A stretch of DNA of 64,000 bases from an uncultured Alphaproteobacteria bacterium (lineage in GTDB: Bacteria; Pseudomonadota; Alphaproteobacteria; RUG11792): the NCBI GenBank assembly GCA_910588255.1, contig CAJUOM010000002.1:15470-79469 (forward strand). The letters run 5' to 3'. The notes beneath the pieces are model-generated. The model did no database searches. It saw only the letters and a program-made list of their open reading frames with translations, and had not been told where the DNA came from. The first letter of the stretch is position 1. Each line of letters begins with the position of its first letter. Of this stretch, positions 1,192-64,000 are shown in pieces. The position numbers and the translations under genes were made by a program.

Positions 1192-1535
1192 AGAAAATTT
1201 TAAAAAAATTTATTATTATCAGAATATAACAAATTTTCTAAAATAGCAATCTCGAATTAAATTAGCTATATGTTTTATGCTTGCACAACCTGGATTGTTA
1301 ATCAGTCTATAATGTCTACTGAAAGCGCTATAGGTACCACTGCGGTGTCAATGAAGTTTTCCGGTGAGACCATCATTCTAATTCACGCTTCGTGCCACAC
1401 TTTGTTTATAATACGTCGCAAATCGTGCTCCATTTGCGATATGTCTAAGGGTTAACTAACATCCATCCCTAAGGTGGAAGGGTTTATTAGGATAGGTTTC
1501 CTATTTAAAAATCAATCCATTCGCGTTGCCAACGC

Positions 1536-2147
1536 CTACGGCGGAGAGAACGCTGAAATATCAAGAATAATTGATAAAGTTTTGCATACATTATTCTTAA
1601 ATACTAAACAGTTTTTCACAACAATTCTCAGAAAATATCCATGATATGTAATACGTTTCAGGAAAACCGGAAACCTCCTCATACGAAGTCTATTTTCCAT
1701 TCTCCGCCTTGGAGCATCACATTCCTTCAGAAGTTTGATCATCGCTTCACGCTTTTGCTCCTCACGAATCTCCTTTTTCGAAGGTATATGACGTACGAGT
1801 TTCACATTACAAACATTCATCAAAAGCTTTTCGACATAATGCTTCGAAGGTGATCCAATCTCAGGAATTCTGAGATCTCTTGCAACAATCTCAATACCTC
1901 CATAATCGTCCATATCAGACTCATAACATCTGAAATTTAGACGAGATTCCATCGCGAGGAATAAGGTTTTCCCATGTCTATCATGAAGTTTTATAAGCTG
2001 AGGACGCATAAAATATTCCTCATATTTCTTATGAATTCTAATAAAAATCTCTGGTTTTTTGCGGTCATTAATGTAGCGATTATCAAACCTAATCTGCTGA
2101 AGTTTAATATCCTTATCACCACCCCAGATGGTCATATAAATTCTCAT
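1536..2147 (-). CDS. hypothetical 203-aa protein carried inside the repeat element (no recognisable family)
   Basis: The ATG at 2147 is preceded by AGGAG (2154-2158) with a 6-nt spacer. The ORF is basic and Arg-rich near the C-terminus (PRRRMENRLRMRRF). I see no HUH/Y1, DDE, CxxC zinc-finger, RT or Walker motifs. Composition looks slightly GC-richer than the neighbouring genes. Confidence 0.55.
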   Translation of the reverse strand: MRIYMTIWGGDKDIKLQQIRFDNRYINDRKKPEIFIRIHKKYEEYFMRPQLIKLHDRHGKTLFLAMESRLNFRCYESDMDDYGGIEIVARDLRIPEIGSPSKHYVEKLLMNVCNVKLVRHIPSKKEIREEQKREAMIKLLKECDAPRRRMENRLRMRRFPVFLKRITYHGYFLRIVVKNCLVFKNNVCKTLSIILDISAFSPP

Positions 2148-2228
2148 AAATTACTCCTAAAAGTTGATAGTCATTTAAATAAAAGTTGTTAAAGATTAAA
2201 GGAAAATATAGTATGTGAGTTACATGGA

Positions 2229-2278
2229 GGGTGCGCAGCGTGTGGTATACTCATTAATTTTACCACACGCCGCGCGCC
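2229..2278. repeat. GC-rich hairpin, type 1 (stem GCGC[A/G]GCGTGTGGTA / TACCACACGCCGCGC)
   Basis: Stem of ~15-18 bp with one mismatch and an AT-rich 13-nt loop. The same hairpin occurs at 45217-45269 and 63952-64000, and in decayed form at 61353-61398. Confidence 0.8.
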
Positions 2279-2298
2279 TGTATATCCCCTATATTTTC

Positions 2299-2355
2299 AG
2301 TATATCTCCAGCTCTTCTCCAAAGTCAAATCCTAAAAAGTCCCATAAAATTTTAG
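2299..2355 (-). promoter_or_regulatory. repeat-borne promoter module: 24-nt motif + TTGACT-18 nt-TATACT (minus strand)
   Basis: Motif CTAAAAAGTCCCATAAAATTTTAG at 2332-2355. The -35 (agtcaa on the plus strand) is at 2323-2328 and the -10 (agtata) at 2299-2304. It points toward ORF203 and ispH. Confidence 0.5.
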
Positions 2356-2508
2356 AGATTTTTACAAGATTTATAAAACTATTTACTAATCTTTTTGGAC
2401 AATCATTATGTCTCTTATGCCGCCCACATATCTAGTAATGATTGATATTGATAAATTTAATAAATTTAATTAAAATGATTTTTGGATAGTTAAAAAATTA
2501 TAATTCAA

Positions 2509-10961: not shown

Positions 10962-11560
10962 ATTTCTTATGCCGATATTAGTCAGCTAAAAAGCAAAACC
11001 CAAAAATAAAATAATATGGCTGCTGTATTCCTACTCTGACCAGGTTTTTAAGTTATTTCTGCAAATGCAAAATAGCTGACAATATTTATTATATCATGAT
11101 TTTGAATAACTTATATCAAAAATTTTCAACCTCTCTACATTAATAATATATCACAATGTCTTCCGAAAGCGCTATAGGTACCCCTGCGGTGTCATCAACT
11201 ATTTGCCGGTGAGGCCATCTTTCTAATTCACGTTTCGTGCAGTTACTCTTTTTTCTTTAAATCAACATTATTTCGCTCTTTCATTCGAAATACTTTCGTT
11301 GAGGTTAAATAAAATATGTTTTGGAATACTATAGCAGAGTAACAACTTCATCTATAGCTTTCAAAACGGTTTAATATATAACTTTTCTTACGAAAAGTTG
11401 GTTCCTGATTTGTCAAAAAACAATCGAAGATATCTTCTAGATTGATTTTTGCGATTTTTATTATAAAGGAACACTAGTCTTGGATTTCTAAATTGTGTTT
11501 TGTAAATACTATTTTGTTTCCAACAGCGTTTTTTAATAAATCAATCCTGTTTTTTGAGGG

Positions 11561-11608
11561 GCGCCCGTGAGTATGGTAGAATATTGATGGTACCATACTC
11601 ACGGGCGC
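11561..11608. repeat. GC-rich hairpin, type 2 (perfect 18-bp stem GCGCCCGTGAGTATGGTA / TACCATACTCACGGGCGC)
   Basis: Perfect inverted repeat with a 12-nt AT-rich loop. A shorter version is at 29056-29095. Confidence 0.85.
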
Positions 11609-11691
11609 ACTTTGTGACACGTAGCTATATTATTTTCCGAAAGGTAGGCAATATATTAAGTTAGTGAACATTACTACAAGTTCCTAATTTC

Positions 11692-11748
11692 AGGATACAT
11701 ACCTTGATTCGTGTATGTCAAATTCTAAAAAGTCCCATAAAATTTTAG
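11692..11748 (-). promoter_or_regulatory. repeat-borne promoter module (motif + TTGACA-18 nt-TATCCT, minus strand)
   Basis: The -35 (tgtcaa on the plus strand) is at 11716-11721 and the -10 (aggata) at 11692-11697. It points toward smr-dps. Confidence 0.4.
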
Positions 11749-11755
11749 ACTTTTT

Positions 11756-12779
11756 TTAACTCAAGGAAATATACTCACCAAAAGCAAGGGCTTTACTAGG
11801 ATTTTCTTTAGCCCAAGCCTCAAATCTAGAAGTAAAAAACTCGAATTTACTTTTTGAGATAGGATCAATATAACCGTATAAGGCTATCATATGTTTTAAG
11901 ATATCCTCTTTTGTTTTTTCTCTTAAAATTCCCGAAATATCAGAAATTGAATAATGAAGCTGATAAGCTCGGATTGAACTAGAACAGGATTCATATCCTA
12001 ACATTGAAATAAAATCTTTATAATCTCCATCATTGAGATCTCTAAAAGCCTCTAAATTAACTTTATGTGTCTCTGATGGCCAATATCCAACTCCAAATTC
12101 TTCAAAAGCTCTTTTATAATTCCACATAGGTCCTATATCACTTTTTCTGGAAGGGGAAAATATCAGCATGAGTTACAACATGATATCCTGGAATTCTATA
12201 ATGTTCTTGTAAATCTCGTGTGAAAGCTACACTTGCCACAAACTGCTCTTCACTGAACGGATACCAATAAACTTCAGATCCAGTTAGCTTTCGAGGAGCA
12301 GAAAATCCAGGAAAAACAACATTTGTTCTTTCAAATCCCGGATTGATATGTTCTATTCCTATTGAATAATAATTTAAACTTGTTTTCCCTGCAAAATAAG
12401 AAATTCCGGCATGATATGCTATATCAGTATCCGGATTAACAGTCTTATATATAATTCCATCATTGTCTATTGTGAAATGAGCAGAAACGCCTCTTTCATT
12501 ATATGTATTTATAGTTCCTCTAAGAGAAGCTCCAGCGGTATAGTGCAATACAATAAATTGATGTAAATCTTCTTTATATTGTTCAAGAGTTGCCGGTTTG
12601 GAAGGATTTGTCCAAAGCCTATAAGATTCTTCCCATGTTCGATGTGTGACTCCGTTTGTTCTAACTTTATTATCCAAATAGCAGTCTACAGTTCGATATC
12701 GAGAAGAATCAAGAGGACTTTCAGCAGCTTGAGTACAACATATGCATGAAAGCATTACTAAACAATTCAATATTTTCAT
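11756..12779 (-). pseudogene. periplasmic N-acetylmuramoyl-L-alanine amidase (AmpD/AmiD, amidase_2 type) split by a frameshift
   Basis: ORFs 12138-12779 (signal peptide, HYTAG, IGIEH) and 11756-12169 overlap. Frame 1 ends HADIFPFQKK*. Frame 2 continues IFSPSRKSDIGPMW, which is the conserved HADI.P.RK.DPGP motif. The shift lies in the T4C4 run (plus strand GGGGAAAA, 12153-12160). Confidence 0.7.
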
Positions 12780-13236: not shown

Positions 13237-14817
13237 TGAAGTAAGTAACCTCTCTCTTTTCAGAATCTTTTCTATATTTTATATAACCATATTTCCCATT
13301 AAAATCGGAACCAGAGATATAAAACGTTTTTCCATCTTCATTCGGATTAATTATTTCGTATCCCAGCAATCGTGTTATAAATTTTGCTATTTCATAATGA
13401 TTCGGTTTGTAAATTTTCTTAAAATTATCTAAAAATTCCCTATCATTACTTTGAACAATAACCGGAATATCTGCACACCTTTCATTGAGATGTCCATGAC
13501 CAAACAGGCCATTCTCTCCTAAAAATTCATTATGATCTGATGCCCAAATTATATAAAATTTCCCGATTTTCTGTTTGTTAAAATATTTAAACAAAGAAGA
13601 TATCACATAGTCATTATACACCATAGCGTTGTCATACTCGTCAATAACAGAATTTCGGATTCGGAGAATTGTCTCCTGTTTAAAAAATCTTTACTAAACA
13701 CTTTTGAATACGGAGTATGGACACATCTTTGATGAAGAACTATGAAATTATGTTTGGAGAAAGTTTGTTGATTTAAAACCGTTATTATATACTGATCCGT
13801 ATATATATCGAAATTTTTATCCCGTGATGCTGTTCTTATTTCATCTATATATTTTTTCCCGGAAATAATACTAATAAGCCCTTCCAATTGATCTGAAATA
13901 TAGAAAGTCTTAAATCCATTTTCTTTTGCTAATTTAAATAAATTAGTCGTATCACTGTATGATAACTGGGTATTGTCAGGTTCTCCTATAACATTCATCA
14001 TAAATTTTAATGAAGATTTAGTATTTATTCCTCCTGCTATACCTTTCGTATAATAAAAATTAGATTCCCTTGATAATTTAAATAAATCAGGGGTAGTATT
14101 CCTTTCATAACCAAACAACGACATATGTCTATAATTTGCACTTTCTCCTAATATATAAACTATGAAGATAGGTTCGTTATTTAAAGAAGTTTTCGCTATA
14201 ACATAGGGTTTATATGATTTTGGATTATAGCCTCTGAATGATAAATCCAGAAAACAAGAGAAGCTTTTTAATGTATTATCAATAGTGAAACGATATTCAT
14301 TTGCCGTGCTATTTCTTATAAAGCAATTGGAATAATATATCCCCCCAAAAGTTGCAAAAAGTATTACTATGCCGAAATGCGACTTGAAGCTTTTGAATTT
14401 CAATATCGGAATCATTAACATAAAAGGGATAATCACAATTAAAACAGTTTTCCAATATTTGAAATACACATTTCTGGCTTCTTGAAAAACATCTTGATAT
14501 TCGTCAAAAAACTGATAGAAGTCATAAGGAGATAATTGACTTCCAAAATATGAAATATGGGCAAACTGTATCATTTGGAGAAAGAAAAGAAAAACTATGC
14601 AAAAAACAGGAAAAAACTTGCTTTTATTAATAATTAGCCCAAAGCATAAGGGAATAAGTAATTTAAATATATTTAACTTATCAGAGCAAACAAAAGAAGA
14701 ATTTACAAATTGATATAAATAATCTGAAAGCATGAATAAACATGCTAATATTAAGGTTGCTGATATTGTGATAATTGTGTTTCTTAAATTAAACTTATTC
14801 CGCATTATTATACTCAA
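13226..14817 (-). pseudogene. phosphoethanolamine transferase (EptA/sulfatase family) paralogue, frameshifted
   Basis: ORFs 13603-14817 and 13226-13624 together align with the intact neighbour. Frame 1 reads FSESEILLLTS. The other frame reads IDEYDNAMVYNDYVISS, against FSGSLTPLIDEYDNAMLYNDHIISS in the intact copy. This implies a 1-nt loss near 13646-13650. Confidence 0.7.
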
Positions 14818-16381
14818 TTCTTCTCTTTTTAGAATCTTTCTTATATTTTATATGACCACATTTACCATTGAAATCCACACCAGAGATAAAAAATGTTTCT
14901 CCGTCTTCATTTGGATTAACTATTTCATATCCCAGCAACCGAGCTATAAATTTTGTTATTTCATAATGATTGGGCTTATAAATTTTCTTAAAATTATTCA
15001 GAAACTCTTTGTCATTGCTTTGAATAATAACAGGAATATCTGCAGTAATAGGGACTAATGTTCCATGCCCATGACCAAACGAACCATTTTCTCCAAGTAA
15101 ATCATTATGATCCGACGCCCAAATTATATAAAATTTTCCGATTTTCTGTTTGTTAAAATAGTTAAACAAAGAAGATATTATATGATCGTTATAAAGCATA
15201 GCATTATCATATTCGTCAATAAGAGGAGTTAAAGACCCCGAAAATTTATGTTTAAATTTAAAATTTTTACTGACAGCTTTTGCATAAGGCGTGTGTATAC
15301 ATCTTTGATGAATCACTATAAAATTACGATTTGTAAATTTCTGACTTTGAATCATTTCAAAAAGTAAGTCATCCATTATTTTTTCTGATTTCTTGACTTC
15401 AGAGTCTTTTGTTCTTAATACATCTATATAAGGTATTCCTGAAATACTACCCAATAAATGCTCTGATTGATTCGATAAATAAAATGTTTTAAATCTATTT
15501 GTTTTTGCAATCCTAAATAAATTTGTCGAGTCACTTGCTGCTTGTATGGGGTTATCCGCCTCTCTTAAAGAATTCAGCATAAACTTACAGGATGCTATAG
15601 TGCAAATAGCACCGGATATTCCTTTGGTGTAATAAACATTTGATTGTTTTACTAAAGTTTTCAATTCAGGTGTTGTTTCTCTTTTATAATTAAACAAAGA
15701 CATATGTTTGCAGTTAGCACTCTCCCCTAATATATAAATTATATTCACAGGTTCTTCGAAGCTACTTTTTATAACTATAATTTCATAAGGTTTATAATCC
15801 TTCACGGGCAATTTTTTATATTCTATAACTAAATATCCCCAAAATGCCTTAAAAGAATTATCTAAAGTAAAACGTACTCCATTTGGATTAAATCTTGGCA
15901 AATGCCTGGTATAATACTTATATCCATAAGAGCAAAATGTAATTAGCAATATCAATGTGCCTATGATTGATTTTCTTTTATTTTTCATAATGCAATACGA
16001 TATTCCTCCAAAAGGAACAATAATCAGCGGAATAATATACCAATAATCATAAAAAGCATTTCCTGCTTCTTGAAATGTGTCTTGGATTTCTCTAAAAAAC
16101 AAATAAACTGAATAAGGAGAAAGAAAATTTCCAAAGTATGCCAAACTAGAAAATTGCATTATTTGAGCCAAACATAAAATAATTATGCAAAAATATGATA
16201 TTAATTTAAATCTGTTAATTACTAACCCAAAACTCAAAGGTACTATCAATGCCAGCACCTTTATGTCATGAGATAATTTAAATTTTTGATTTATAAATGA
16301 AAAAATTATATCAGGAAGTATTAAAAGAAAAGCAACAATAAATATCAATAATATTGTTTTATTCAGGCTATTAAATTTCAT
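14795..16381 (-). CDS. phosphoethanolamine transferase (EptA/sulfatase family), intact
   Basis: 528 aa. A five-TM N-domain is followed by a sulfatase domain with GESANCKHMSLFNYKRETTPEL, HQRCIHTPY, YDNAMLYND and ASDHNDLLGENGSFGHGH. Confidence 0.75.
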   Translation of the reverse strand: MKFNSLNKTILLIFIVAFLLILPDIIFSFINQKFKLSHDIKVLALIVPLSFGLVINRFKLISYFCIIILCLAQIMQFSSLAYFGNFLSPYSVYLFFREIQDTFQEAGNAFYDYWYIIPLIIVPFGGISYCIMKNKRKSIIGTLILLITFCSYGYKYYTRHLPRFNPNGVRFTLDNSFKAFWGYLVIEYKKLPVKDYKPYEIIVIKSSFEEPVNIIYILGESANCKHMSLFNYKRETTPELKTLVKQSNVYYTKGISGAICTIASCKFMLNSLREADNPIQAASDSTNLFRIAKTNRFKTFYLSNQSEHLLGSISGIPYIDVLRTKDSEVKKSEKIMDDLLFEMIQSQKFTNRNFIVIHQRCIHTPYAKAVSKNFKFKHKFSGSLTPLIDEYDNAMLYNDHIISSLFNYFNKQKIGKFYIIWASDHNDLLGENGSFGHGHGTLVPITADIPVIIQSNDKEFLNNFKKIYKPNHYEITKFIARLLGYEIVNPNEDGETFFISGVDFNGKCGHIKYKKDSKKRRIEYNNAE

Positions 16382-17606: not shown

Positions 17607-19670
<2,064 letters not shown>

Positions 19671-19687
19671 ATTGACGGAAAAAATCT

Positions 19688-19711
19688 CTAAAATTTTATG
19701 GGACTTTTTAA
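19688..19711 (+). repeat. solo copy of the 24-nt motif CTAAAATTTTATGGGACTTTTTA(A)
   Basis: A 23/24 match to the motif in the repeat promoter modules. It lies just after ligA and 320 nt upstream of the pfk pseudogene. No clear -35/-10 follows. Confidence 0.7.
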
Positions 19712-20034: not shown

Positions 20035-21186
20035 ATGATTTTTAAGTTTGTCTTAACAATTGTAGGTAGTTTTTTAATTGCATTTGGAAATATAACAAAT
20101 GCAATTTCCGCAGAAAAACCTAGGATAGGAATATTAACCTCCGGAGGAGATTGTTCTGGGCTAAACTCTACAATATATGCGACTTATAAAAAAGCAACAG
20201 ATTTGGGATATGAGGTTATAGGTTTCAAACATGGAGTCCACGGATTGGTAAACTGAGATTATATTGTTTTGAATAAAGAAATATGCACACCGGATATTTT
20301 AAGAAAAGGTGGAAGCATCTTAAAATCCAATACAAAAGCCTTAAAAGACAAATTTGGAAATCCTTTATCAAAAGAAGATGGAGACAAAGCCATCATTCGA
20401 GAATATCATAAATTGAAGCTACAAGGATTGATTTATATAGGAGGAGATGGAAGTATCGGATTAATGAAAAATATACTTCAAAAAGACCAATCCTTAAATA
20501 TCATAGCAATTCCGAAAACAATAGATAATGATATCGCAAACACAGATGTTTCCGTAGGCTTCTCAACTGTAACAAAAGTAGTGGAAGAAGAAATTTCAAA
20601 TATAATAACAACAGCACAAAGTCATAGTCGAATTATGGTAATTGAAGTTATGGGAAGAGGCGCGGGATACATAGCCTTAAGTTCAGGATTGGCAATTGGT
20701 GCAGACGCGATAATTATCCCTGAAATGAAATGTAATATGAATAATCTTATTGCAAAAATTAAAGATGTTTATAATTCCGGAAAAGATTATAGTATTATAG
20801 TTGTGTCAGAGGGAGTTGAGTTCGATGAGTTTAAATATAAAAATACGAAATTCTCTGACGTTATTTCAAGGAAAGACTATGGAGGAGTTTCTAATTTTAT
20901 AGTTAAAAAATTAAAAGAGGCCGGATTTGATGCCAAAGCTGTCATACTGGGGCATACTCAAAGAGGTGGAATCACATCTGTTGAAGACAGAATTTTAGCT
21001 CAGAAATTCGGAATAACAGCTGTTCAATTGATCGCAAACAAAGATTGCGGATATTTGCTGGGAATTCTGAATAACAAGATTTCCAAAACAAAGCTTTCAG
21101 ATATAAGAAAAACAACGAGAAATTTAACTCCAAATGATCCTAATATTATCTTAGCTCAAAATTTAGGAATTTATATAGGCGGATAA
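20035..21186 (+). pseudogene. 6-phosphofructokinase paralogue interrupted by an in-frame TGA
   Basis: ORFs 20035-20256 and 20269-21186 are in the same frame, separated by a TGA at 20254-20256 (GLVN*DYIVLNKE). PFK motifs GGDCSGLN, GGDGS, PKTIDND and MGRGAG are present. It carries an unusual hydrophobic 28-aa N-terminal extension. Confidence 0.7.
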
Positions 21187-28199: not shown

Positions 28200-28973
28200 A
28201 TGGTTAAGAAACGTATACAACATAAGAAAAAACATTCGAGATATTTTGTAAAATATCTTTTATTGCTTCTCATCGTAGGTGGCGGGATTTATTCTTTTTC
28301 TAATTATATATATAGTTTTTTTACTTTTATCCATAGTTCCATACCTCAAACTATGGGTTTTTCAATTGATCATATAAATATTTCTGGAGCGAATAAAAAA
28401 ACTCAAAGATTGATTTTTGAAAACATAGGAATATCAAAAGGAGAGTGTATACTTAAATTATCAACTCAGAAAATTTTTTCTAATATTTCCAAAATCAATT
28501 GGGTAAAATCTGTAGTTGTTCAAAAAATTCTCCCAAATAGTATTAATATAAAAATAAAAGAAAGAACACCAATTGCTATATTTCAAAATGGGTCAGGAGC
28601 AATTCTGATAGATAAAAGTGGAAATCTCATTGAAAAAATAAAAACTAGACTCCCTAATATTCCTATAATCTCTGGAGGAAACGCAAACTTCAACGTGAAA
28701 TATATTTTAGATCTTATTTCTCAATACAAAGATTTGCGAGATAACCTTGATTCATTGACTTATATTCGAGAAAGGCGTTGGAATATCATTCTTTCAGGAA
28801 TAAAAGTCTTGCTTCCTGAAACAGAAATAGAGAAAGCCTTAGAAATTTTATCAACTATACTGAAAACAGGAAAAATAAATAAAAATACAGTCAGTAAAAT
28901 TGACTTAAGAACACCAGAAAATGTTATATTCAGTAAGTTAAAACTAACTAACAGAGGCTCTTTAATTTTATAA
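28200..28973 (+). CDS. ftsQ: cell division protein FtsQ
   Basis: 257 aa. One N-terminal TM segment, a POTRA-like region (I.I.G....T......) and an FtsQ-type C-domain (V.KILPN.I.I.I.ER.PIA). Confidence 0.7.
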   Translation: MVKKRIQHKKKHSRYFVKYLLLLLIVGGGIYSFSNYIYSFFTFIHSSIPQTMGFSIDHINISGANKKTQRLIFENIGISKGECILKLSTQKIFSNISKINWVKSVVVQKILPNSINIKIKERTPIAIFQNGSGAILIDKSGNLIEKIKTRLPNIPIISGGNANFNVKYILDLISQYKDLRDNLDSLTYIRERRWNIILSGIKVLLPETEIEKALEILSTILKTGKINKNTVSKIDLRTPENVIFSKLKLTNRGSLIL

Positions 28974-29055
28974 TTTTTATGTCTACCGAAAGCACTATAG
29001 AATTCCTGTGGCGATGATTTATACATTTTTGAGAATTCAAGCTTTTTGAAGGCAC

Positions 29056-29095
29056 CCGTGAGTATGGTATAATATCAAGCGTACCATACTCACGG
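29056..29095. repeat. GC-rich hairpin, type 2 (14-bp stem CCGTGAGTATGGTA / TACCATACTCACGG)
   Basis: Same stem core as 11561-11608, with a different loop. Confidence 0.8.
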
Positions 29096-29107
29096 ATACC
29101 AAACATT

Positions 29108-29752
29108 TCATTCTAGATCATATGCTAAGGCCCAGCTTATAATATTCCTGTAATCTCGGATAGGATAATAACCTGGCATAAATTCATTAAATCTTTCAGC
29201 CAAAAAATTCATTAGGAAAAATATTTTTTCGATTTTTTTATCATCATAACCTTTTGCTTTTAATGAAGTTTTTATTTTTTCCTGATCTTCAAAAAGTTCA
29301 GATTCATTACCTTGTATCTGATCAACAGGAATAAGTATTTCATTTATTTCTAAAAACTTTTTCAAAAAGAACTTAGATAAAAAATTTATTCTCATCGGAA
29401 TATAATCTGATAAATCCCATTTGCTAGAATCTTCACTATCAGCAAAAGATTTATATTCATCAATTAGATTCCTTAAAGAATGAGAATTTCGTTTTTTGCA
29501 AAATTCAGTAAAACGAGAGTTTTCATCATCTTCTTCATAAGAGAAATGCTTATTATTAAAAGCATCCTTTTCATCTTCAGTCAAAGGAGTGTTTATTTTT
29601 TCCTCTACATCATATTTCAAATCATCAAGATCTGTATTAAAGAAAGTAGGATTCGAAGCTGTATAAAGCAAAATATTTTCAGCTAATGAAGTTTCACATA
29701 TAGTTATACAATTTAACAAAAGCATAACTGGTAATAATTTTAAGATTTTCAT
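29108..29752 (-). CDS. hypothetical secreted protein (214 aa)
   Basis: N-terminal signal peptide (LLLNCITICETSLA), then an acidic Asp/Glu-rich sequence. No recognisable domain. Confidence 0.5.
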   Translation of the reverse strand: MKILKLLPVMLLLNCITICETSLAENILLYTASNPTFFNTDLDDLKYDVEEKINTPLTEDEKDAFNNKHFSYEEDDENSRFTEFCKKRNSHSLRNLIDEYKSFADSEDSSKWDLSDYIPMRINFLSKFFLKKFLEINEILIPVDQIQGNESELFEDQEKIKTSLKAKGYDDKKIEKIFFLMNFLAERFNEFMPGYYPIRDYRNIISWALAYDLE

Positions 29753-29850
29753 AAATCTAACAATATATTTATTATATATTGTGTATATGTGATTGTCAAT
29801 ATTTTTGAGAAATATAATTACAAAACAATCCTATGCGTTCTTAATTTCAG

Positions 29851-29905
29851 AATATACAACTTGATTCATACCTGTCAAACTCTAAAAAGTCCCATAAAAT
29901 TTTAG
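29851..29905 (-). promoter_or_regulatory. repeat-borne promoter module (motif + TTGACA-16 nt-TATATT, minus strand) driving the 214-aa ORF
   Basis: The -35 (tgtcaa) is at 29873-29878 and the -10 (aatata) at 29851-29856. The ORF start at 29752 is about 90 nt downstream. Confidence 0.5.
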
Positions 29906-29983
29906 GAATTTTTATACGCTTAAAAAATCACTTATCAATCTAAATAAGCCTCTATTACTGGAATTTTAAAAAATCATGTTATT

Positions 29984-42755: not shown

Positions 42756-43256
42756 TCAGCGTATTTCATTATCAAATACACCAAAAACATCTGATTTCTT
42801 TATCCACCCCCGATATTTTTCTCCGCCACTATAAATCTTTACTTCACACCATTTTCCACGAACTGCAATCAATTCCATAATTACATTTTTCTTAATAAGT
42901 GCAATCAAATTTGAATTATCATTTGAATCGGACATAAGTTTTGCCGAAGTATTATTTGTCGTCATCACAAACCTTTTTGAAGAAAGTAAACTTTTATGAA
43001 TCCAGCTTTCACTTCCAAAAGGATCTTTTATCTTTCTCCAATGATCATATTTTGCAATAATCATAACAGGCATCCCTTTTTGAATATATTCAAAACTTAT
43101 CTTATATTCTTTTCCAGGCCCTCTATGAGAATTAGCTTTATTTGATTTTATCGAAGCATAATAAGGATCACAAATCCCGCTTTTTATAAACGCAAAAGTC
43201 TCATCCGCAAGCAAAAATAAAAATAAGAGTAAATATATGGTTTTTCTATATCTCAC
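42756..43256 (-). CDS. SH3-like domain protein (COG3807/DUF1058 type)
   Basis: Signal peptide, then the pattern N.HRGPG..Y.I...Y...G.PV.IIA.YD.WRKI.D..G.E.WIH.S.LS..R and WC.V......GWI. Confidence 0.7.
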   Translation of the reverse strand: MRYRKTIYLLLFLFLLADETFAFIKSGICDPYYASIKSNKANSHRGPGKEYKISFEYIQKGMPVMIIAKYDHWRKIKDPFGSESWIHKSLLSSKRFVMTTNNTSAKLMSDSNDNSNLIALIKKNVIMELIAVRGKWCEVKIYSGGEKYRGWIKKSDVFGVFDNEIR

Positions 43257-44337
43257 CTATATAGACCCCTAAATTTCTCGCAGCTTTGACATATTCATTA
43301 TTTAAATCCAGAACCTTATTGACGCTTTTTATTACATCAGAAATATTCATTGTTTTTAATCTATTTTCAGAAAACAACAAGACTTTTCCAGAAACTTTCT
43401 TGTCTATAAGATTAATAGCCTCAAGTCCAAATAAAGTTCCAAGTAACCTATCATTAATACAAGTTTTTCCTCCTCTTTGAACATGCCCTAGAGTGACGCA
43501 TCGTGATTCAATACCAGTTTCCTTTATTTTACTCACCAAATGTTGCCCTATACCTCTATATGCCAAATGTGAATATTTCATTACTCCATCAACATTTTCC
43601 ACATTATGCTTAAAATCACTATCTTCAACAGACTCAGCAACAACTACAATACAATAATTTTTTCCATTTGAAAAACATTCTTTTACTTTGTTTTTCACTT
43701 TTTCAATATCATATTTAAATTCTGGAACAAGAATAATATCAGCTCCTGAAGCTATTCCTGCATACATTGCAATAAATCCGGCATCTCTTCCCATAACTTC
43801 AACAACCATAGCTCTCTCATGGCTTTTTGCAGTTGATCTGATATTTTCAACAGCTGAAACGACAACCTCTAAAGAAGTTTGAAAACCAATGGAATAATCG
43901 GTATAATTAACGTCATTATCAATAGTTTTAGGAATAAAAGCTATATTTAAATTTTCATTTTTAATAAGCAGTTCGTTTATTAATCGAAGACTGCCATCCC
44001 CGCCAACACAAACCAATCCTTCCAATTCGAGTTTTTTATAGCCCTCGTGAATCATATTCTTTATGTCTTCTATAGACTTTCCGGATTCTATAGTTGATGA
44101 CATCCATTTTGTGTCGGAAAGAATAATACTACCCGAATTCGTCAACATGTCTTCATTACAAAGTTTATCAGTAAGTTTTATAAAGTCAATAGGATCATTT
44201 GCAAGAGCTCTTATTCCCCTTTTTAATCCCAATAATTCATACCCAAGGTTTTTTGCTCTGATAAAAGCAGCTCTTATGACTGAGTTTAATCCGGAACAAT
44301 CTCCACCCACAGTTAGTATTCCTATTCTTTTCTTCAT
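43246..44337 (-). CDS. pfkA: 6-phosphofructokinase, intact
   Basis: 363 aa with RIGILTVGGDCSGLN, GGDGS, PKTIDND, MGRDAG and GH.QRGG. Confidence 0.85.
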   Translation of the reverse strand: MKKRIGILTVGGDCSGLNSVIRAAFIRAKNLGYELLGLKRGIRALANDPIDFIKLTDKLCNEDMLTNSGSIILSDTKWMSSTIESGKSIEDIKNMIHEGYKKLELEGLVCVGGDGSLRLINELLIKNENLNIAFIPKTIDNDVNYTDYSIGFQTSLEVVVSAVENIRSTAKSHERAMVVEVMGRDAGFIAMYAGIASGADIILVPEFKYDIEKVKNKVKECFSNGKNYCIVVVAESVEDSDFKHNVENVDGVMKYSHLAYRGIGQHLVSKIKETGIESRCVTLGHVQRGGKTCINDRLLGTLFGLEAINLIDKKVSGKVLLFSENRLKTMNISDVIKSVNKVLDLNNEYVKAARNLGVYIGEI

Positions 44338-44468
44338 ATATGTCGTTTGTTCAAACTTAACAAATTAGGATATAATCATTTTTTATATTAACATTCTTTA
44401 AACAAAATTTCAAAAAGTATCTTAAATTGGAATTAAAATACACATTCATAAAAACATCTTAAAAACAC

Positions 44469-44501
44469 CTAAAACTTTAAGGGACTATTTATGATTTGAC
44501 A
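44469..44501 (+). repeat. degenerate copy of the 24-nt motif plus TTGACA
   Basis: CTAAAACTTTAAGGGACTATTTAT followed by TTGACA (44496-44501). No good -10 is visible. Confidence 0.5.
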
Positions 44502-44577
44502 TGAAAGAAGGGGAAGAGGAACACTGAATAGCGTTCTCACTAGTTCCCCAATACTTCTCTTCATTAAGTATTGAATT

Positions 44578-45016: not shown

Positions 45017-45141
45017 AATCTTTCTCCTGTAATAAATTTAACTTATATCCATATTATATCGAATATTATATCAAAAAGCAAGGGAAAAATATATTTATTT
45101 CGTACTTATAAAATAAGTAATAGAAACGTCAAGAAAATTTA

Positions 45142-45198
45142 TTAAAATTTTATGGGACTTTTTAGAGTTTGACTTGTGGAAAGAACGAGGAATATACT
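45142..45198 (+). promoter_or_regulatory. repeat-borne promoter module (motif + TTGACT-18 nt-TATACT) pointing at tRNA-Leu-rpmI-rplT
   Basis: Motif at 45142-45165, -35 at 45169-45174, -10 at 45193-45198. Confidence 0.5.
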
Positions 45199-45216
45199 GA
45201 AATTATAGAGGATATA

Positions 45217-45269
45217 CAGGTGCGCGGCGTGTGGTGAAATTAACGAGTATGCCACACGCCGCGCTCCTG
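45217..45269. repeat. GC-rich hairpin, type 1
   Basis: GCGCGGCGTGTGG / CCACACGCCGCGC, extended by CAGG/CCTG. Confidence 0.8.
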
Positions 45270-45595
45270 AATGCCTCATTCCGATTTGATTACATATAAA
45301 CCCTTCCACCCTAGGGATGGATGTTAGTTAACCTTAAACCATATTGAAGAAGTTGTGACTTTACAATTAACCTATCAAAATAAGTCACTGCACGAAGCAT
45401 GAATTAGAAAGAAGACCTCACCGGAAAACTTCATTGACACCGCAGAGGTACCTATAGCGCTTTCGCAAGGCATAAAGATTATAAAACAACCAGATAGATC
45501 TGTCTTAGTAAAACAATGTTTTTTAAAAAATAGCATAAATTGAATTTATGAACTTGACAAATAACGTAAAAGCTAGTAAATTTAAGAAGTAAGCT

Positions 45596-54632: not shown

Positions 54633-54646
54633 TTCCAGAAAAATAT

Positions 54647-54679
54647 CTAAAATTTTATGGGACTTTTTATTTTTTGACA
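54647..54679 (+). repeat. solo 24-nt motif plus TTGACA
   Basis: CTAAAATTTTATGGGACTTTTTAT at 54647-54670 and TTGACA at 54674-54679. The -10 is weak. It points across tRNA-Val (antisense) toward the capsid gene. Confidence 0.6.
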
Positions 54680-54722
54680 AATTATTAAAAAATATCTTAA
54701 CCTGAATATAGATCAGATAAAT

Positions 54723-54798
54723 TGGTGGTCGCAACAGGACTCGAACCTGTGACAACTGCGATGTGAACGCAGTGCTCTACCAACTGAGCTATACGACC
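54723..54798 (-). tRNA. tRNA-Val (CAC)
   Basis: 76 nt. The reverse complement is GGTCGTATAGCTCAGTTGGTAGAGCACTGCGTTCACATCGCAGTTGTCACAGGTTCGAGTCCTGTTGCGACCACCA. Anticodon loop TTCACAT. Confidence 0.85.
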
Positions 54799-54879: not shown

Positions 54880-55839
54880 ATGAATATACCTGAACAAAAT
54901 TTAAACGATATAAATATCGCAGACTCAAAAAAGTTTATAAACTTTTTGAAAGGAAACCAAGATACACATGAATCTATTGTTTTGCCAGCGTGTATAACAG
55001 ATTCTATTAGCAGCAAAATACAAGCTCTGAGTCCTATAAAATCACTTGCAAAAGTGACATATACTTCTGGAGACAGATTAGATATTGTTACTGATTCTGG
55101 AAAAGCCCAGGAATCAGGCTGGATAACTGACGAGTTGATAAAAAACAATGAGAATAATACAGTTTCAAAAATATCGATTTATCTGCATCAATTGTTTGCT
55201 AAACCAAGAGTTGCGCATAGCCTTTTAGAAGATCAAACAACAAATGTTGAAGAATTTATTCACGATAAAATAACTACTCAAATGGCTGCATCTGAAAATA
55301 AAGCGTTTTTGTTTGGAGATGGAATTTCTCAACCTAAAGGAATTTTAAGCTATGAAATTTCGACAGAAAGTCCAAAAGAACACCAAATTGAAGGCGTTAT
55401 TGGCGGTGTAAATGGAAAAATAACCGATTATACTAAGATTGTTGAAGTTATGGAAAAACTTCCTTCGAAATATCTTTCAGGTGCGACTTGGATTATGTCA
55501 AGAAACGCAGCTTCTCATATCAGAACACTTCGCGATGAGACAAATGGAAAATTCCTTTGGCAAAATTCGATAGCTCATGGTATCCCTGATACGCTTCTTG
55601 GCTATCCTGTCGTTATATGCGATGATATGCCGAAATTACACAAAACCGAGAATTGTACGCCGGTGTTATTTGCAAACTTGTATGAAGGTTATCAAATAGC
55701 AGAGAAGCCAACTATGAATATCTTGAAAGATCCATACAATGCAAAACCATTTGTTGAGTTTTATGCAACAAAAAGAATCGGTGGAGATGTTGTCAATTTC
55801 GACTCTATCAAAGCTTTAGTTTTGAAAAACGAAGAATAA
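54880..55839 (+). CDS. phage/GTA major capsid protein, HK97 family (short, little or no delta domain)
   Basis: 319 aa with FLFGDGISQPKGIL, ATWIMSRNAASHIRTLRDETNGKFLWQ and GYPVVICDDMP, as in HK97-type capsids. Confidence 0.7.
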   Translation: MNIPEQNLNDINIADSKKFINFLKGNQDTHESIVLPACITDSISSKIQALSPIKSLAKVTYTSGDRLDIVTDSGKAQESGWITDELIKNNENNTVSKISIYLHQLFAKPRVAHSLLEDQTTNVEEFIHDKITTQMAASENKAFLFGDGISQPKGILSYEISTESPKEHQIEGVIGGVNGKITDYTKIVEVMEKLPSKYLSGATWIMSRNAASHIRTLRDETNGKFLWQNSIAHGIPDTLLGYPVVICDDMPKLHKTENCTPVLFANLYEGYQIAEKPTMNILKDPYNAKPFVEFYATKRIGGDVVNFDSIKALVLKNEE

Positions 55840-61023: not shown

Positions 61024-61128
61024 TTTATTTCATAACATTTATCATTTCTCTATATGATATCACAATGCTTTAATTTACTCAATGTTATCACAGAAGTTAG
61101 GATCGATAGATAATTTTTCAGATTCACG

Positions 61129-61484
61129 ATGTCTACCGAAAACGCTATAGGTGCCCCTGCGGTGTCATCAACCGTTTACCGGTGAGGCCATCTTTCTAAT
61201 TCACGCTTCGTGCAGTGACTTATTTTGATAGGTTAATTGTAAAGCCACAACTTCTTCAATATGGTTTAAGATTAACTAACATCCATCCCTAAGGTGGAAG
61301 GGTTTATTGGGTAATTTTTCGTAAGAAAAGTTGGAAATGAGGAGTTAAGGAAGCACGGCGTGTAATAAAATTAACGTGCATACCACACGCCGCGCGCCTG
61401 AATATTCTTTATATTTTCAGTATATTCCCTGTTATTTCCTTATGTCAAATCATAAATAGTCCCATAAAATTTTAGGTGTTTTTA
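61129..61484 (-). repeat. ORF-less copy of the modular repeat
   Basis: A module from 61129, B module (TTAACTAACATCCATCCCTAAGGTGGAAGGGTTTATT), decayed type-1 hairpin at 61353-61398, promoter module and motif at 61452-61475. Confidence 0.8.
61419..61475 (-). promoter_or_regulatory. repeat-borne promoter module (motif + TTGACA-18 nt-TATACT, minus strand) pointing at pheS
   Basis: The -35 (tgtcaa) is at 61443-61448 and the -10 (agtata) at 61419-61424. Confidence 0.5.
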
Positions 61485-61508
61485 CGGGGCATTTGTTATT
61501 CTTGTTAA

Positions 61509-63951: not shown

Positions 63952-64000
63952 GGTGCGCGGCGTGTGGTATACTCATTAATTTTACCACACGCCGCGCACC
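63952..64000. repeat. GC-rich hairpin, type 1, perfect 18-bp stem (at the window edge)
   Basis: GGTGCGCGGCGTGTGGTA-13 nt-TACCACACGCCGCGCACC. It has the same loop orientation as 2229-2278, so its promoter module would lie just beyond the window, pointing toward tRNA-Cys-accA. Confidence 0.85.

Follow-up and report, generated by a model that had tools for sequence, protein, structure and literature searches.

The insertion sequences of the IS200/IS605 type, with TnpB, its omega-RNA and the gene-less PATE derivatives, have asymmetric, hairpin-rich ends (without inverted terminal repeats or target duplication) and a structured, conserved non-coding segment which runs on from the protein gene to the right boundary, and their shorter gene-less copies retain the ends. 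In the IS1111/IS110 group, a structured non-coding RNA (seekRNA or bridge RNA) lies beside the protein gene inside the element (3' of the recombinase gene in IS1111), classical inverted repeats are absent and an end sequence can serve as a -35 hexamer. The pneumococcal BOX, enterobacterial BIME/REP and neisserial Correia repeats are dispersed, intergenic sequences made of interchangeable hairpin modules, with promoters on some copies and often located beside gene starts, and in type III toxin-antitoxin systems (ToxIN) a small protein is coupled to a structured RNA from the same promoter, the ToxI-type antitoxins being tandem repeats placed upstream of the toxin open reading frame (ORF). Here we analyse a unit located between ispH and frr in a 64,000-nucleotide stretch (hereafter the window) of the genome of an uncultured Alphaproteobacteria bacterium (GenBank assembly GCA_910588255.1, contig CAJUOM010000002.1, positions 15,470 to 79,469). 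The reading to which we give about half of our confidence is that this unit is one of the ORF-bearing members of a lineage-restricted, dispersed, modular family of selfish-type elements, old and slow-moving, in which a 203-residue protein and a right-end RNA would work together and on which the ORF-less derivatives would depend in trans.

The ORF-bearing repeat unit occupies positions 1296-2367 of the minus strand, in the ispH/frr intergenic gap, and every feature that the initial annotation had listed for it (from the left-end motif and promoter to the conserved 3' tail) was found there by sequence inspection and by ORF and promoter scoring. Related units are cited below by the number of their locus contig, L001 being the window locus (frr/ispH) itself. 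Read along the minus strand, the parts of the unit are the following:

2330-2367, minus strand: left end (LE), an A-tract and then the 21-nt motif AAAATTTTATGGGACTTTTTA (2333-2353), with phased A/T tracts immediately 5' of the -35 hexamer.
2299-2328, minus strand: inward-facing sigma-70-type promoter, TTGACT-18-TATACT, the top promoter-like site of the region (10 of 12 matches).
2230-2278, minus strand: GC-rich palindrome H1 in the 5' leader, an 18-bp stem with two mismatches (repeat family D3/D4).
2148-2229, minus strand: leader in which the 24-nt hairpin repeat CCAACTTTTCGYAAGAAAAGTTAT is present in degenerate form, with the Shine-Dalgarno sequence AGGAG at 2158-2154, which a 6-nt gap separates from the ATG at 2147.
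1536-2147, minus strand: 203-codon ORF (from the ORF call) encoding a basic orphan protein.
1523-1546, minus strand: small hairpins CGCC-GUA-GGCG and GCGUU-GGC-AACGC, across and just 3' of the stop codon (the second, GCGTT-GGC-AACGC in DNA, at 1535-1523).
1439-1503, minus strand: B module with a hairpin; L017, L018 and L014 have a different hairpin at the same place.
1411-1440, minus strand: central hairpin UCGCAAAU/AUUUGCGA, with a compensatory G-C to A-U change in L017 and L018.
1296-1406, minus strand: A module, which is the right end (RE), recognized by RNAalifold helices, pair counts and a covariance-model match of 121 bits.

These parts recur to different degrees among the related units. 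The LE motif AAAATTTTATGGGACTTTTTA occurs eight times in 64 kb, against 0.06 occurrences expected (none of 100 shuffles reached eight), and it is kept in the paralogues L003 and L006, with diverged forms in L015, L017 and L018. The TTGACT/TATACT hexamers are kept in all paralogues and in L014, and H1 is an optional module, absent from L003, present in L006 and solitary at 63952-64000. A hairpin analogous to the one spanning the stop codon is found in L014, L011, L015, L016 and L024 and is absent from L023, and the central segment has a second sequence variant (45296-45390, 61174-61260, L010 and L025). The B and A modules lie 3' of the ORF and end at about 1305-1312; the RE terminus is GGUAGACAU, which contains a -35-like TAGACA.

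Within the tail formed by these two modules, the last ~110 nt (the A module) are the most constrained part of the unit. Over the B+A segment (about 177 nt), six ORF-bearing copies from both genomes (that of the window and that of a sister metagenome-assembled genome, MAG) differ by Jukes-Cantor distances of 0.05-0.09, whereas the ORFs of the same copy pairs show nonsynonymous divergence (dN) of 0.08-0.13 and synonymous divergence (dS) of 0.3-0.9. Constraint on the tail is therefore no weaker than that on the replacement sites of the protein. This comparison bears directly on the idea of an ordinary paralogous gene family, whose flanks would be conserved only via segmental duplication or gene conversion and whose tail would have no function of its own. 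Copies within a genome are more alike than copies from different genomes, a pattern that concerted evolution could give, but gene conversion cannot explain the tail, because the synonymous divergence of the adjacent ORF would have been erased too. Moreover, the tail occurs without the ORF, compensatory changes preserve its helices and the A module persists where the proteins are 30-35% identical. We regard the paralogous-family explanation as very improbable, since the contrast between tail distance and ORF dS, together with the covariation described next, largely refutes it on present data.

The secondary structure of the A module was obtained by applying RNAalifold to 12 A modules aligned with MAFFT (the result holds with 14 sequences). 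A long-range helix, P1, pairs positions 1391-1385 with 1328-1322 (GAAGCG/CGCUUUC) and encloses both the invariant loop UGAAUUAGAAAGAUG and a hairpin, P2, which pairs 1370-1366 with 1340-1336 and 1363-1361 with 1345-1343 (CCUC..CGG/CCG..GAGG); the conserved 3' end of the module is GGUAGACAUUAUGAA. In the pair counts, 95% of the cells are paired and six of the seven P1 pairs have changes on both sides, none of 500 shuffles reached the observed pairing, and slid registers pair at 38-50%, so that the covariation which the initial annotation had proposed to look for is indeed present. In L015, P1 is replaced by CACUCAUA/UAUGAGUG and in its paralogue L023 by CACUCGUA/UACGAGUG, with an added A-U to G-C swap relative to L015, and in L017 and L018 G-C pairs of both P1 and the central hairpin are swapped for A-U. 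The pairing reaches 95.2% on the ORF strand versus 79.8% on the other, with G-U cells numbering 40 and A-C cells 8, and the favoured strand is therefore the one that the LE promoter would transcribe.

The tail had been described from the start as conserved and rich in hairpins, and while its constraint and its covarying helices are real, it is not unusually stable in thermodynamic terms: its folding energy is unremarkable (z = +0.35 for the sense strand and -0.49 for the antisense strand), and the evidence for structure consequently rests on covariation and not on energy. At the gathering threshold, Rfam 15 matched only tRNAs and the signal recognition particle (SRP) RNA in the window; at E values up to 10, nothing in 1296-1546 was matched, and a chance mir-84 match (1547-1615, E 3.4, 15 bits) falls in the last codons of the ORF, just upstream. 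A scan of viral contigs for the A-module core gave no match either. Four candidate features of the tail were discarded: a local hairpin within A (CACG-AAG-CGUG), whose pairing is broken in L015, L017 and L023, all of which keep P1; an extension of P1 proposed by RNAalifold (AGUGU/ACAUU), absent from the second tail variant and from L015; a peptide on the opposite strand (ORF 1270-1455), whose frame and stop are not conserved among copies; and the use of the P2 loop as a locus-specific guide, since copies at different loci have the same loop. We also observed that the invariant loop opens with a two-codon mini-ORF (AUG or GUG, then AAU and UAG; window 1380-1388, with equivalents in all A modules) and that the string AUGAAUCGAAAAG, which resembles this mini-ORF, lies 3' of helix P1.

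The association between protein and tail holds over a considerable evolutionary distance. In the JGI sample 3300031521, two paralogous contigs, L015 and L023, encode 184-residue homologues with 30-35% identity to the window protein, and in both of them an A module ending in GUAGACAUUAUGAA lies about 250 nt 3' of the stop codon, which adds weight to the initial proposal of a joint action of protein and tail. In L015 the gene is preceded by CTTTTATGGGCGTTTTTTTATTTTGACA, a left end related to that of the window unit; the L023 contig starts inside the leader, so its LE is out of view. In the L017/L018 lineage, ORF-less units contain LE, promoter, a B-like module, the central hairpin and A, one of them located 76 nt upstream of aspS, and L014, which encodes a 64%-identical homologue, still has promoter, leader and a B-like module.

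The protein itself has a pI of 9.9, and all family members are basic (pI 9.5-10.2). Nearly all close homologues (64-100% identity) have exactly 203 residues, and truncated versions of 124-157 residues also exist. Pairwise dN/dS between the ORF copies is 0.04-0.24, and the 203-codon ORF is therefore a real gene under purifying selection. In agreement with the initial annotation, which could not place the protein in any family, a profile search of 1.84 billion representative proteins yielded no more than 17 clusters, of 175-227 residues each, a distribution quite different from that of an ordinary chromosomal family, and scans of the window protein and 19 family members against Pfam (E up to 10 for the former, up to 0.1 for the latter), NCBIfam, PHROGs and PADLOC gave no match. 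The PDB sequence profile search returned only chance synaptotagmin matches (E >0.06), and tblastn against plasmid and phage collections did not match the protein. A single GTDB species has it, a MAG labelled "uncultured Alphaproteobacteria bacterium"; IspH homologues with no more than 65% identity carry the labels of Holosporales or Alphaproteobacteria MAGs. As we read them, the hosts are AT-rich (31% G+C, as in the window) alphaproteobacterial symbionts of the Holosporales type; genome size and GC content are available for the Hepatincolaceae (PMC11724238).

Within the family, E43, F63, R73, Y75, E76, G98 and S101 are invariant, as is a C-terminal (S/A)P(P/T), and the motif FRxYExD is conserved. 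This C-terminal signature, present in all family proteins, coincides with a stop codon that lies within a 3-6-bp hairpin in most copies (window 1536-1546; L014, L015, L016 and L024), and it is a feature of the protein, given that the third codon positions vary. The AlphaFold (AF2) model built with 17 sequences (pLDDT 78) consists of a beta-rich N-terminal domain (residues 1-118) and a single long basic helix (124-200). Judging from its charge only, the protein may bind nucleic acid.

A basic protein that is co-inherited with a structured RNA could also be the toxin of an addiction (toxin-antitoxin-like) module, neutralized by the RNA as in type III systems, with the ORF-less copies as extra antitoxin; such a module would explain why the copies are intact, since multiple genes are kept under purifying selection in a reduced genome, and the ORF-less units with a promoter of their own would then be RNA-only. 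Neither Pfam nor PADLOC matched ToxN, AbiE, another toxin family or a defence model, however, the RNA lies 3' of the ORF and is not tandemly repeated, and L014 is without this RNA within 1 kb downstream; we consider the addiction module unlikely. An even lower probability goes to a divergent single-strand-DNA transposon of the IS200/IS605 or REP/RAYT kind, in which DNA hairpins would be recognized by a Y1-type enzyme. Its asymmetric ends, subterminal hairpins, lack of target duplications and gene-less derivatives would fit, as would the invariant Tyr75, but an HUH motif is lacking, none of the 19 family members matched the Y1_Tnp or OrfB_IS605 profile, no conserved target tetranucleotide is visible at the left flank, and the predicted fold does not match those of the solved HUH enzymes.

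Going back to the selfish-element reading, its autonomous/non-autonomous layout depends on the short copies. The initial annotation had reported that both ends of the unit recur without the ORF, and BLASTN and a repeat finder located these copies at 45143-45473 (inverted) and 61129-61485 (direct). Including the flanking modules, the other members of the family in the window are the following, of which the initial annotation had covered only the first two:

45131-45489, plus strand: ORF-less copy with LE, promoter, H1, B, variant centre and A, 107 nt upstream of tRNA-Leu.
61113-61485, minus strand: ORF-less copy with a deletion junction within the GC palindrome, 90 nt upstream of pheS.
11139-11760, minus strand: ORF-less copy located upstream of the gene for SRP RNA, with a second leader type that contains palindrome H2 and is shared with L003.
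28963-29941, minus strand: unit with the family LE and promoter, H2, a different ORF of 214 codons and, from the RE, no more than the final ~25 nt (weak covariance-model match, E 2e-4).
19669-19710, plus strand: lone LE motif, ending right after the motif.
44460-44528, plus strand: lone LE and promoter, degenerate.
54639-54720, plus strand: lone LE and promoter, abutting the 3' end of tRNA-Val.
63952-64000, no strand assigned: GC palindrome of the H1 family standing by itself at the edge of the window.

The sequences of the ORF-less copies suggest how they originated. When compared by BLASTN with full elements, 61113-61485 matches L006 from LE into H1 and resumes at a related palindrome, H3, behind the ORF, the two matches overlapping within the palindrome. 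Similarly, 11139-11760 (with the same left and right ends as the other copies and a different leader) can be aligned with the L003 leader as far as the 24-nt hairpin repeat CCAACTTTTCGYAAGAAAAGTTAT, which flanks the L003 ORF on both sides. Since the junctions lie inside repeated hairpins, the ORF-less copies look like products of deletion between internal hairpin repeats; the reverse route, the insertion of an ORF segment between hairpin repeats, is possible as well. The internally deleted L011 and 28963-29941 retain only the last ~22-25 nt of the RE, TATAGCGCTTTCGSWAGACAT, and the retention of termini despite larger deletions is as expected if they are needed in cis. Short and gene-bearing copies share both termini; the autonomous/non-autonomous pair that had been postulated is thus real as a layout, with derivatives traced to hairpin-repeat recombination, and the part of the claim that concerns mobility found no counterpart in the form of a transposase, terminal inverted repeats or target duplications.

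The unit at 28963-29941 is peculiar in that its 214-codon ORF (29108-29752), which encodes a hydrophobic N-terminus and has its own perfect TTGACA-17-TATAAT promoter, has no Pfam match and is unrelated to the 203-residue protein; it may be captured cargo, or simply a gene flanked by element fragments. Additionally, two families of GC-rich palindromes stand out in this 31% GC genome, one at 2230-2278, 45219-45267, 61350-61398 and 63952-64000 and the other at 11560-11608 and 29051-29095. The H1 loop is found in both orientations relative to the host element, and the solitary copy at 63952-64000 adjoins tRNA-Cys; these two observations suggest that the palindrome may be independently invertible or mobile. 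In L014, a diverged palindrome (1316-1362) has its stem preserved via many paired changes.

Gene-bearing copies are likewise dispersed. The initial annotation had left it to be checked whether other ORF-carrying copies exist, and they were found at different loci: the metagenome with L001 also has copies at ssb/argS (L003) and tgt/phzF (L006), and a sister sample, which has a tgt/phzF copy too (L007), carries one between a degraded portal gene and iscS (L025). With these copies, the compensatory changes in the A module and the narrow distribution of the protein, neither of the two outcomes that would have overturned the initial annotation was obtained. There are at least four dispersed copies of the protein gene in the window genome and five in the sister MAG, none of them at a shared locus. 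The five copies of the sister MAG adjoin murD, gltX, lepB-rnc, rpsT-uvrA and a kinase gene, and all five lie at contig ends, element copies thereby explaining the assembly breaks at these sites. ORF dS is 0.32-0.45 among the copies of the window genome, 0.41-0.70 among those of the sister MAG and 0.69-0.90 between genomes, against 0.32-0.36 for housekeeping genes of the two genomes (ispH, mutS and a BON-domain gene), and therefore none of the 20 cross-genome pairs is orthologous. These divergences point to a turnover of the copy sets at about the time of the split between the two genomes, or later.

Upstream of ispH, the element is absent from three relatives (IspH 94%, 88% and 85% identical). 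Of the two signs that the first annotation had proposed to look for in related strains, presence/absence polymorphism and target duplications, the second does not occur. The ispH promoter ATTGCTATTTTAGAAAATTTGTTGTACTCT is the same in all three element-free relatives, and we accordingly rejected the idea that the element supplies the promoter of ispH. Because gene order differs in all four genomes compared, the region upstream of ispH is a rearrangement hot spot. In the sister MAG (L019, 3313-4001), a 690-nt spacer upstream of ispH holds only short ORFs (36 and 40 residues) and no element.

The position of the units relative to the neighbouring genes is biased. Of the 13 units with a known downstream gene, 12 are co-oriented with it and end 36-125 nt before it (one-sided binomial p ~0.002), the exception being 28963-29941. 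The co-oriented neighbours are ispH, the SRP RNA gene, tRNA-Leu, pheS, argS, phzF, lepB, rpsT, the kinase gene, aspS, a small ORF followed by iscS, and the L014 gene. We interpret the bias as selective: a strong promoter without a terminator would be disfavoured wherever it fires into convergent genes. The element may also contribute to the regulation of the downstream gene. In L013 (1040-1103), the RE terminus GGTAGACAT (window 1305-1320), with its TAGACA, sits 18 nt before TG-n-TAGAAT, just ahead of the next gene, and the two hexamers could form an outward hybrid promoter of the type known from insertion sequences.

It is here that the most substantial rival has to be considered, namely a domesticated, no longer mobile multi-copy RNA gene family. 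Each unit would then produce a promoter-driven structured RNA of about 300 nt, some units would encode a small basic RNA-binding protein with the RNA in the 3' untranslated region, and the host would keep the copies for the expression of the downstream housekeeping gene, via the RNA or via promoter read-through. The one-sided orientation and the L013 arrangement agree with it, as do the age of the copies (dS 0.3-0.9), the strong constraint on every tail copy and the full-length ORFs, all intact and with low dN/dS; the intactness and constraint of every copy, in particular, fit this explanation almost as well as they fit a selfish element. Against it, the downstream genes are functionally unrelated (ispH, argS, aspS, pheS, phzF, rpsT, lepB, tRNA and SRP RNA genes), those that were checked possess promoters of their own whether or not the element is present, the loci are entirely different between the sister genomes, and truncated and rearranged members are frequent. 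On balance, we hold domestication to be possible without being probable.

If the units are selfish elements, a mechanism can be outlined. The LE promoter would transcribe the whole unit, so that ORF-bearing and ORF-less copies would both yield an RNA with the A module at its end; this RNA, or the same strand as single-stranded DNA, would be bound by the basic protein; the resulting complex would help the element to propagate or to be maintained, and would act on ORF-less copies in trans; and copies would persist mainly upstream of, and co-oriented with, the next gene, as only there would a strong unterminated promoter be tolerated. A bolder version, which we regard as doubtful, is that the 203-residue protein, with its beta-barrel-like domain and long helix of no known fold or family, and the covarying right-end RNA form a ribonucleoprotein which itself mobilizes or homes the element; the latter would then represent an RNA-dependent class unrelated to TnpB/IscB, IS110 bridge-RNA systems, retrons and group II introns, with the ORF-less copies as trans-mobilized RNA-only partners.

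Several observations weigh against a selfish element. Terminal inverted repeats and target-site duplications were found at none of the copies, whose two ends are unrelated to each other. Upstream of ispH, the three relatives provide no exact pair of filled and empty sites, and none can be defined because far-side synteny differs in every relative. No two copies are near-identical (dS at least 0.3), hence there is no sign of recent movement. The full-length copies examined are all intact and under purifying selection, with the tail conserved in every one, which fits a host-level function better than a decaying parasite, and such old, intact copies would be unusual for an active insertion sequence. 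As for the protein, profile and fold searches gave no HUH, DDE, DEDD or serine/tyrosine recombinase signature (the absence of HUH/Y1 and DDE motifs had already been noted by eye). The structure search that had been suggested was carried out with two AlphaFold models (pLDDT 68 and 78), both against PDB and the first also against BFVD, and Foldseek found no match with E <0.01; the top match, an Hcp-like barrel (E 0.019, TM 0.29 normalized to the query), is too weak for an assignment to the Hcp/tail-tube fold, which we discarded. The transcription of the tail is deduced from the promoter alone. The covariation comes from about three independent lineages, and this sample stays small because a metagenome scan with the A core gave just two short contigs, L017 and L018. 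Finally, the A module was not found within 1 kb downstream of the L014 ORF and the ORF copy L025 is without LE, for which reason the protein-tail linkage, as far as these contigs indicate, is strong and not absolute.

Some observations on the surroundings may be added. The lone LE at 54639-54720 abuts tRNA-Val (54723-54798, minus strand), beyond which lies a gene for a phage major capsid protein (54880-55839; Pfam Phage_capsid, E 8e-61), and degraded phage portal fragments adjoin the ORF copy in L025; capsid gene and portal fragments may be prophage or gene-transfer-agent remnants at a tRNA. Two phosphofructokinase paralogues (43246-44337 and 20269-21186) each lie near a lone LE (44460-44528 and 19669-19710, respectively), the second of them having a TTG start and matching profile positions 57-277 only. 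In L018 (186-512), upstream of the ORF-less element, a fragment of 108 residues resembles the N-terminal arm-binding domain of P4-type integrases and is probably a pseudogene. Diverged tandem direct repeats (78-85% identical, spaced by ~1570 nt) at 13253-15331 of the window fall in the adjacent minus-strand ORFs 13603-14817 and 14795-16381, which are therefore tandemly duplicated paralogous genes.

The motif, the protein and the RNA are absent from curated libraries, our literature search found no description of any of them, and the family is thus undescribed. Even on a conservative reading, a new structured RNA family and an orphan protein family, both under strong selection, would be added to what is known of poorly studied symbiont genomes, and the locus offers a concrete example of how gene-less repeat copies can arise via recombination between internal hairpin modules. 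If protein and right-end RNA do act together, they would constitute a compact protein-RNA selfish element whose parts have no known relatives, and might be the source of a very small protein guided by, or binding to, nucleic acid.

How does this unit compare with the described systems? With IS200/IS605 elements and their PATE derivatives it shares the asymmetric hairpin-rich ends, which lack inverted repeats and target duplications, the structured segment between gene and right boundary and the gene-less copies that retain the ends; covarying hairpins lie at its right end, whereas its left end is an A/T-tract motif with only weak dyad symmetry. It differs from them in its 203-residue protein (devoid of RuvC, HUH or zinc motif and of any profile or fold match), in a structured segment that does not overlap the 3' end of the ORF and in its own strong promoter at the left end. 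Neither a Y1_Tnp match nor a conserved H-x-H in the family alignment, the marks of the Y1 HUH TnpA, was found, the protein did not match OrfB_IS605 or OrfB_Zn_ribbon (TnpB has ~400 residues), Rfam found nothing in the tail, and 10 left junctions have no conserved flank that could be a target-adjacent motif. The IS200/IS605 likeness proposed by the initial annotation therefore stands for the architecture and not for the protein, which gave no Y1 or TnpB profile or fold match.

The parallels with IS1111/IS110 are the structured RNA beside the protein gene, the lack of classical inverted repeats and an end sequence able to act as a -35 hexamer (the RE ends with TAGACA). The unit differs in having no DEDD/RuvC-like transposase and in a P2 variable loop that is shared by copies at different loci and so holds no locus-specific guide; DEDD_Tnp_IS110, Transposase_20 and RNase H-like fold matches were not obtained, no consistent complementarity of the RNA to LE or RE was seen by eye, and no circle junction was observed. 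The BOX, BIME/REP and Correia repeats resemble it in their dispersed, intergenic, modular hairpins, in the promoters on some copies and in their position next to gene starts. Unlike the family described here, with its ORF-bearing form, they carry no protein gene (REPs rely on a separate single-copy RAYT), Correia repeats have inverted ends and TA duplications, and the A module is far more constrained than is typical of any of them. ToxIN offers the same coupling of a small protein to a structured RNA under one promoter, but its RNA is an upstream tandem array, whereas the RNA of the present unit is downstream, single-copy and ~110-300 nt long, and the protein has no similarity to ToxN, CptN or TenpN; no Pfam or PADLOC match to a type III system and no tandem repeat upstream of the ORF were found.

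Judged by these sequence comparisons, membership in IS200/IS605, IS110/IS1111, the classical insertion sequences and miniature inverted-repeat elements (IS/MITE) or the type III toxin-antitoxin systems fails on the defining proteins or ends, and the likeness to systems that combine a transposon-encoded protein with an end-derived RNA is, by analogy, an architectural one only. Should the selfish-element reading prove true, the family would add a further member to the transposon-encoded RNA systems now represented by omega-RNA, bridge RNA and seekRNA.

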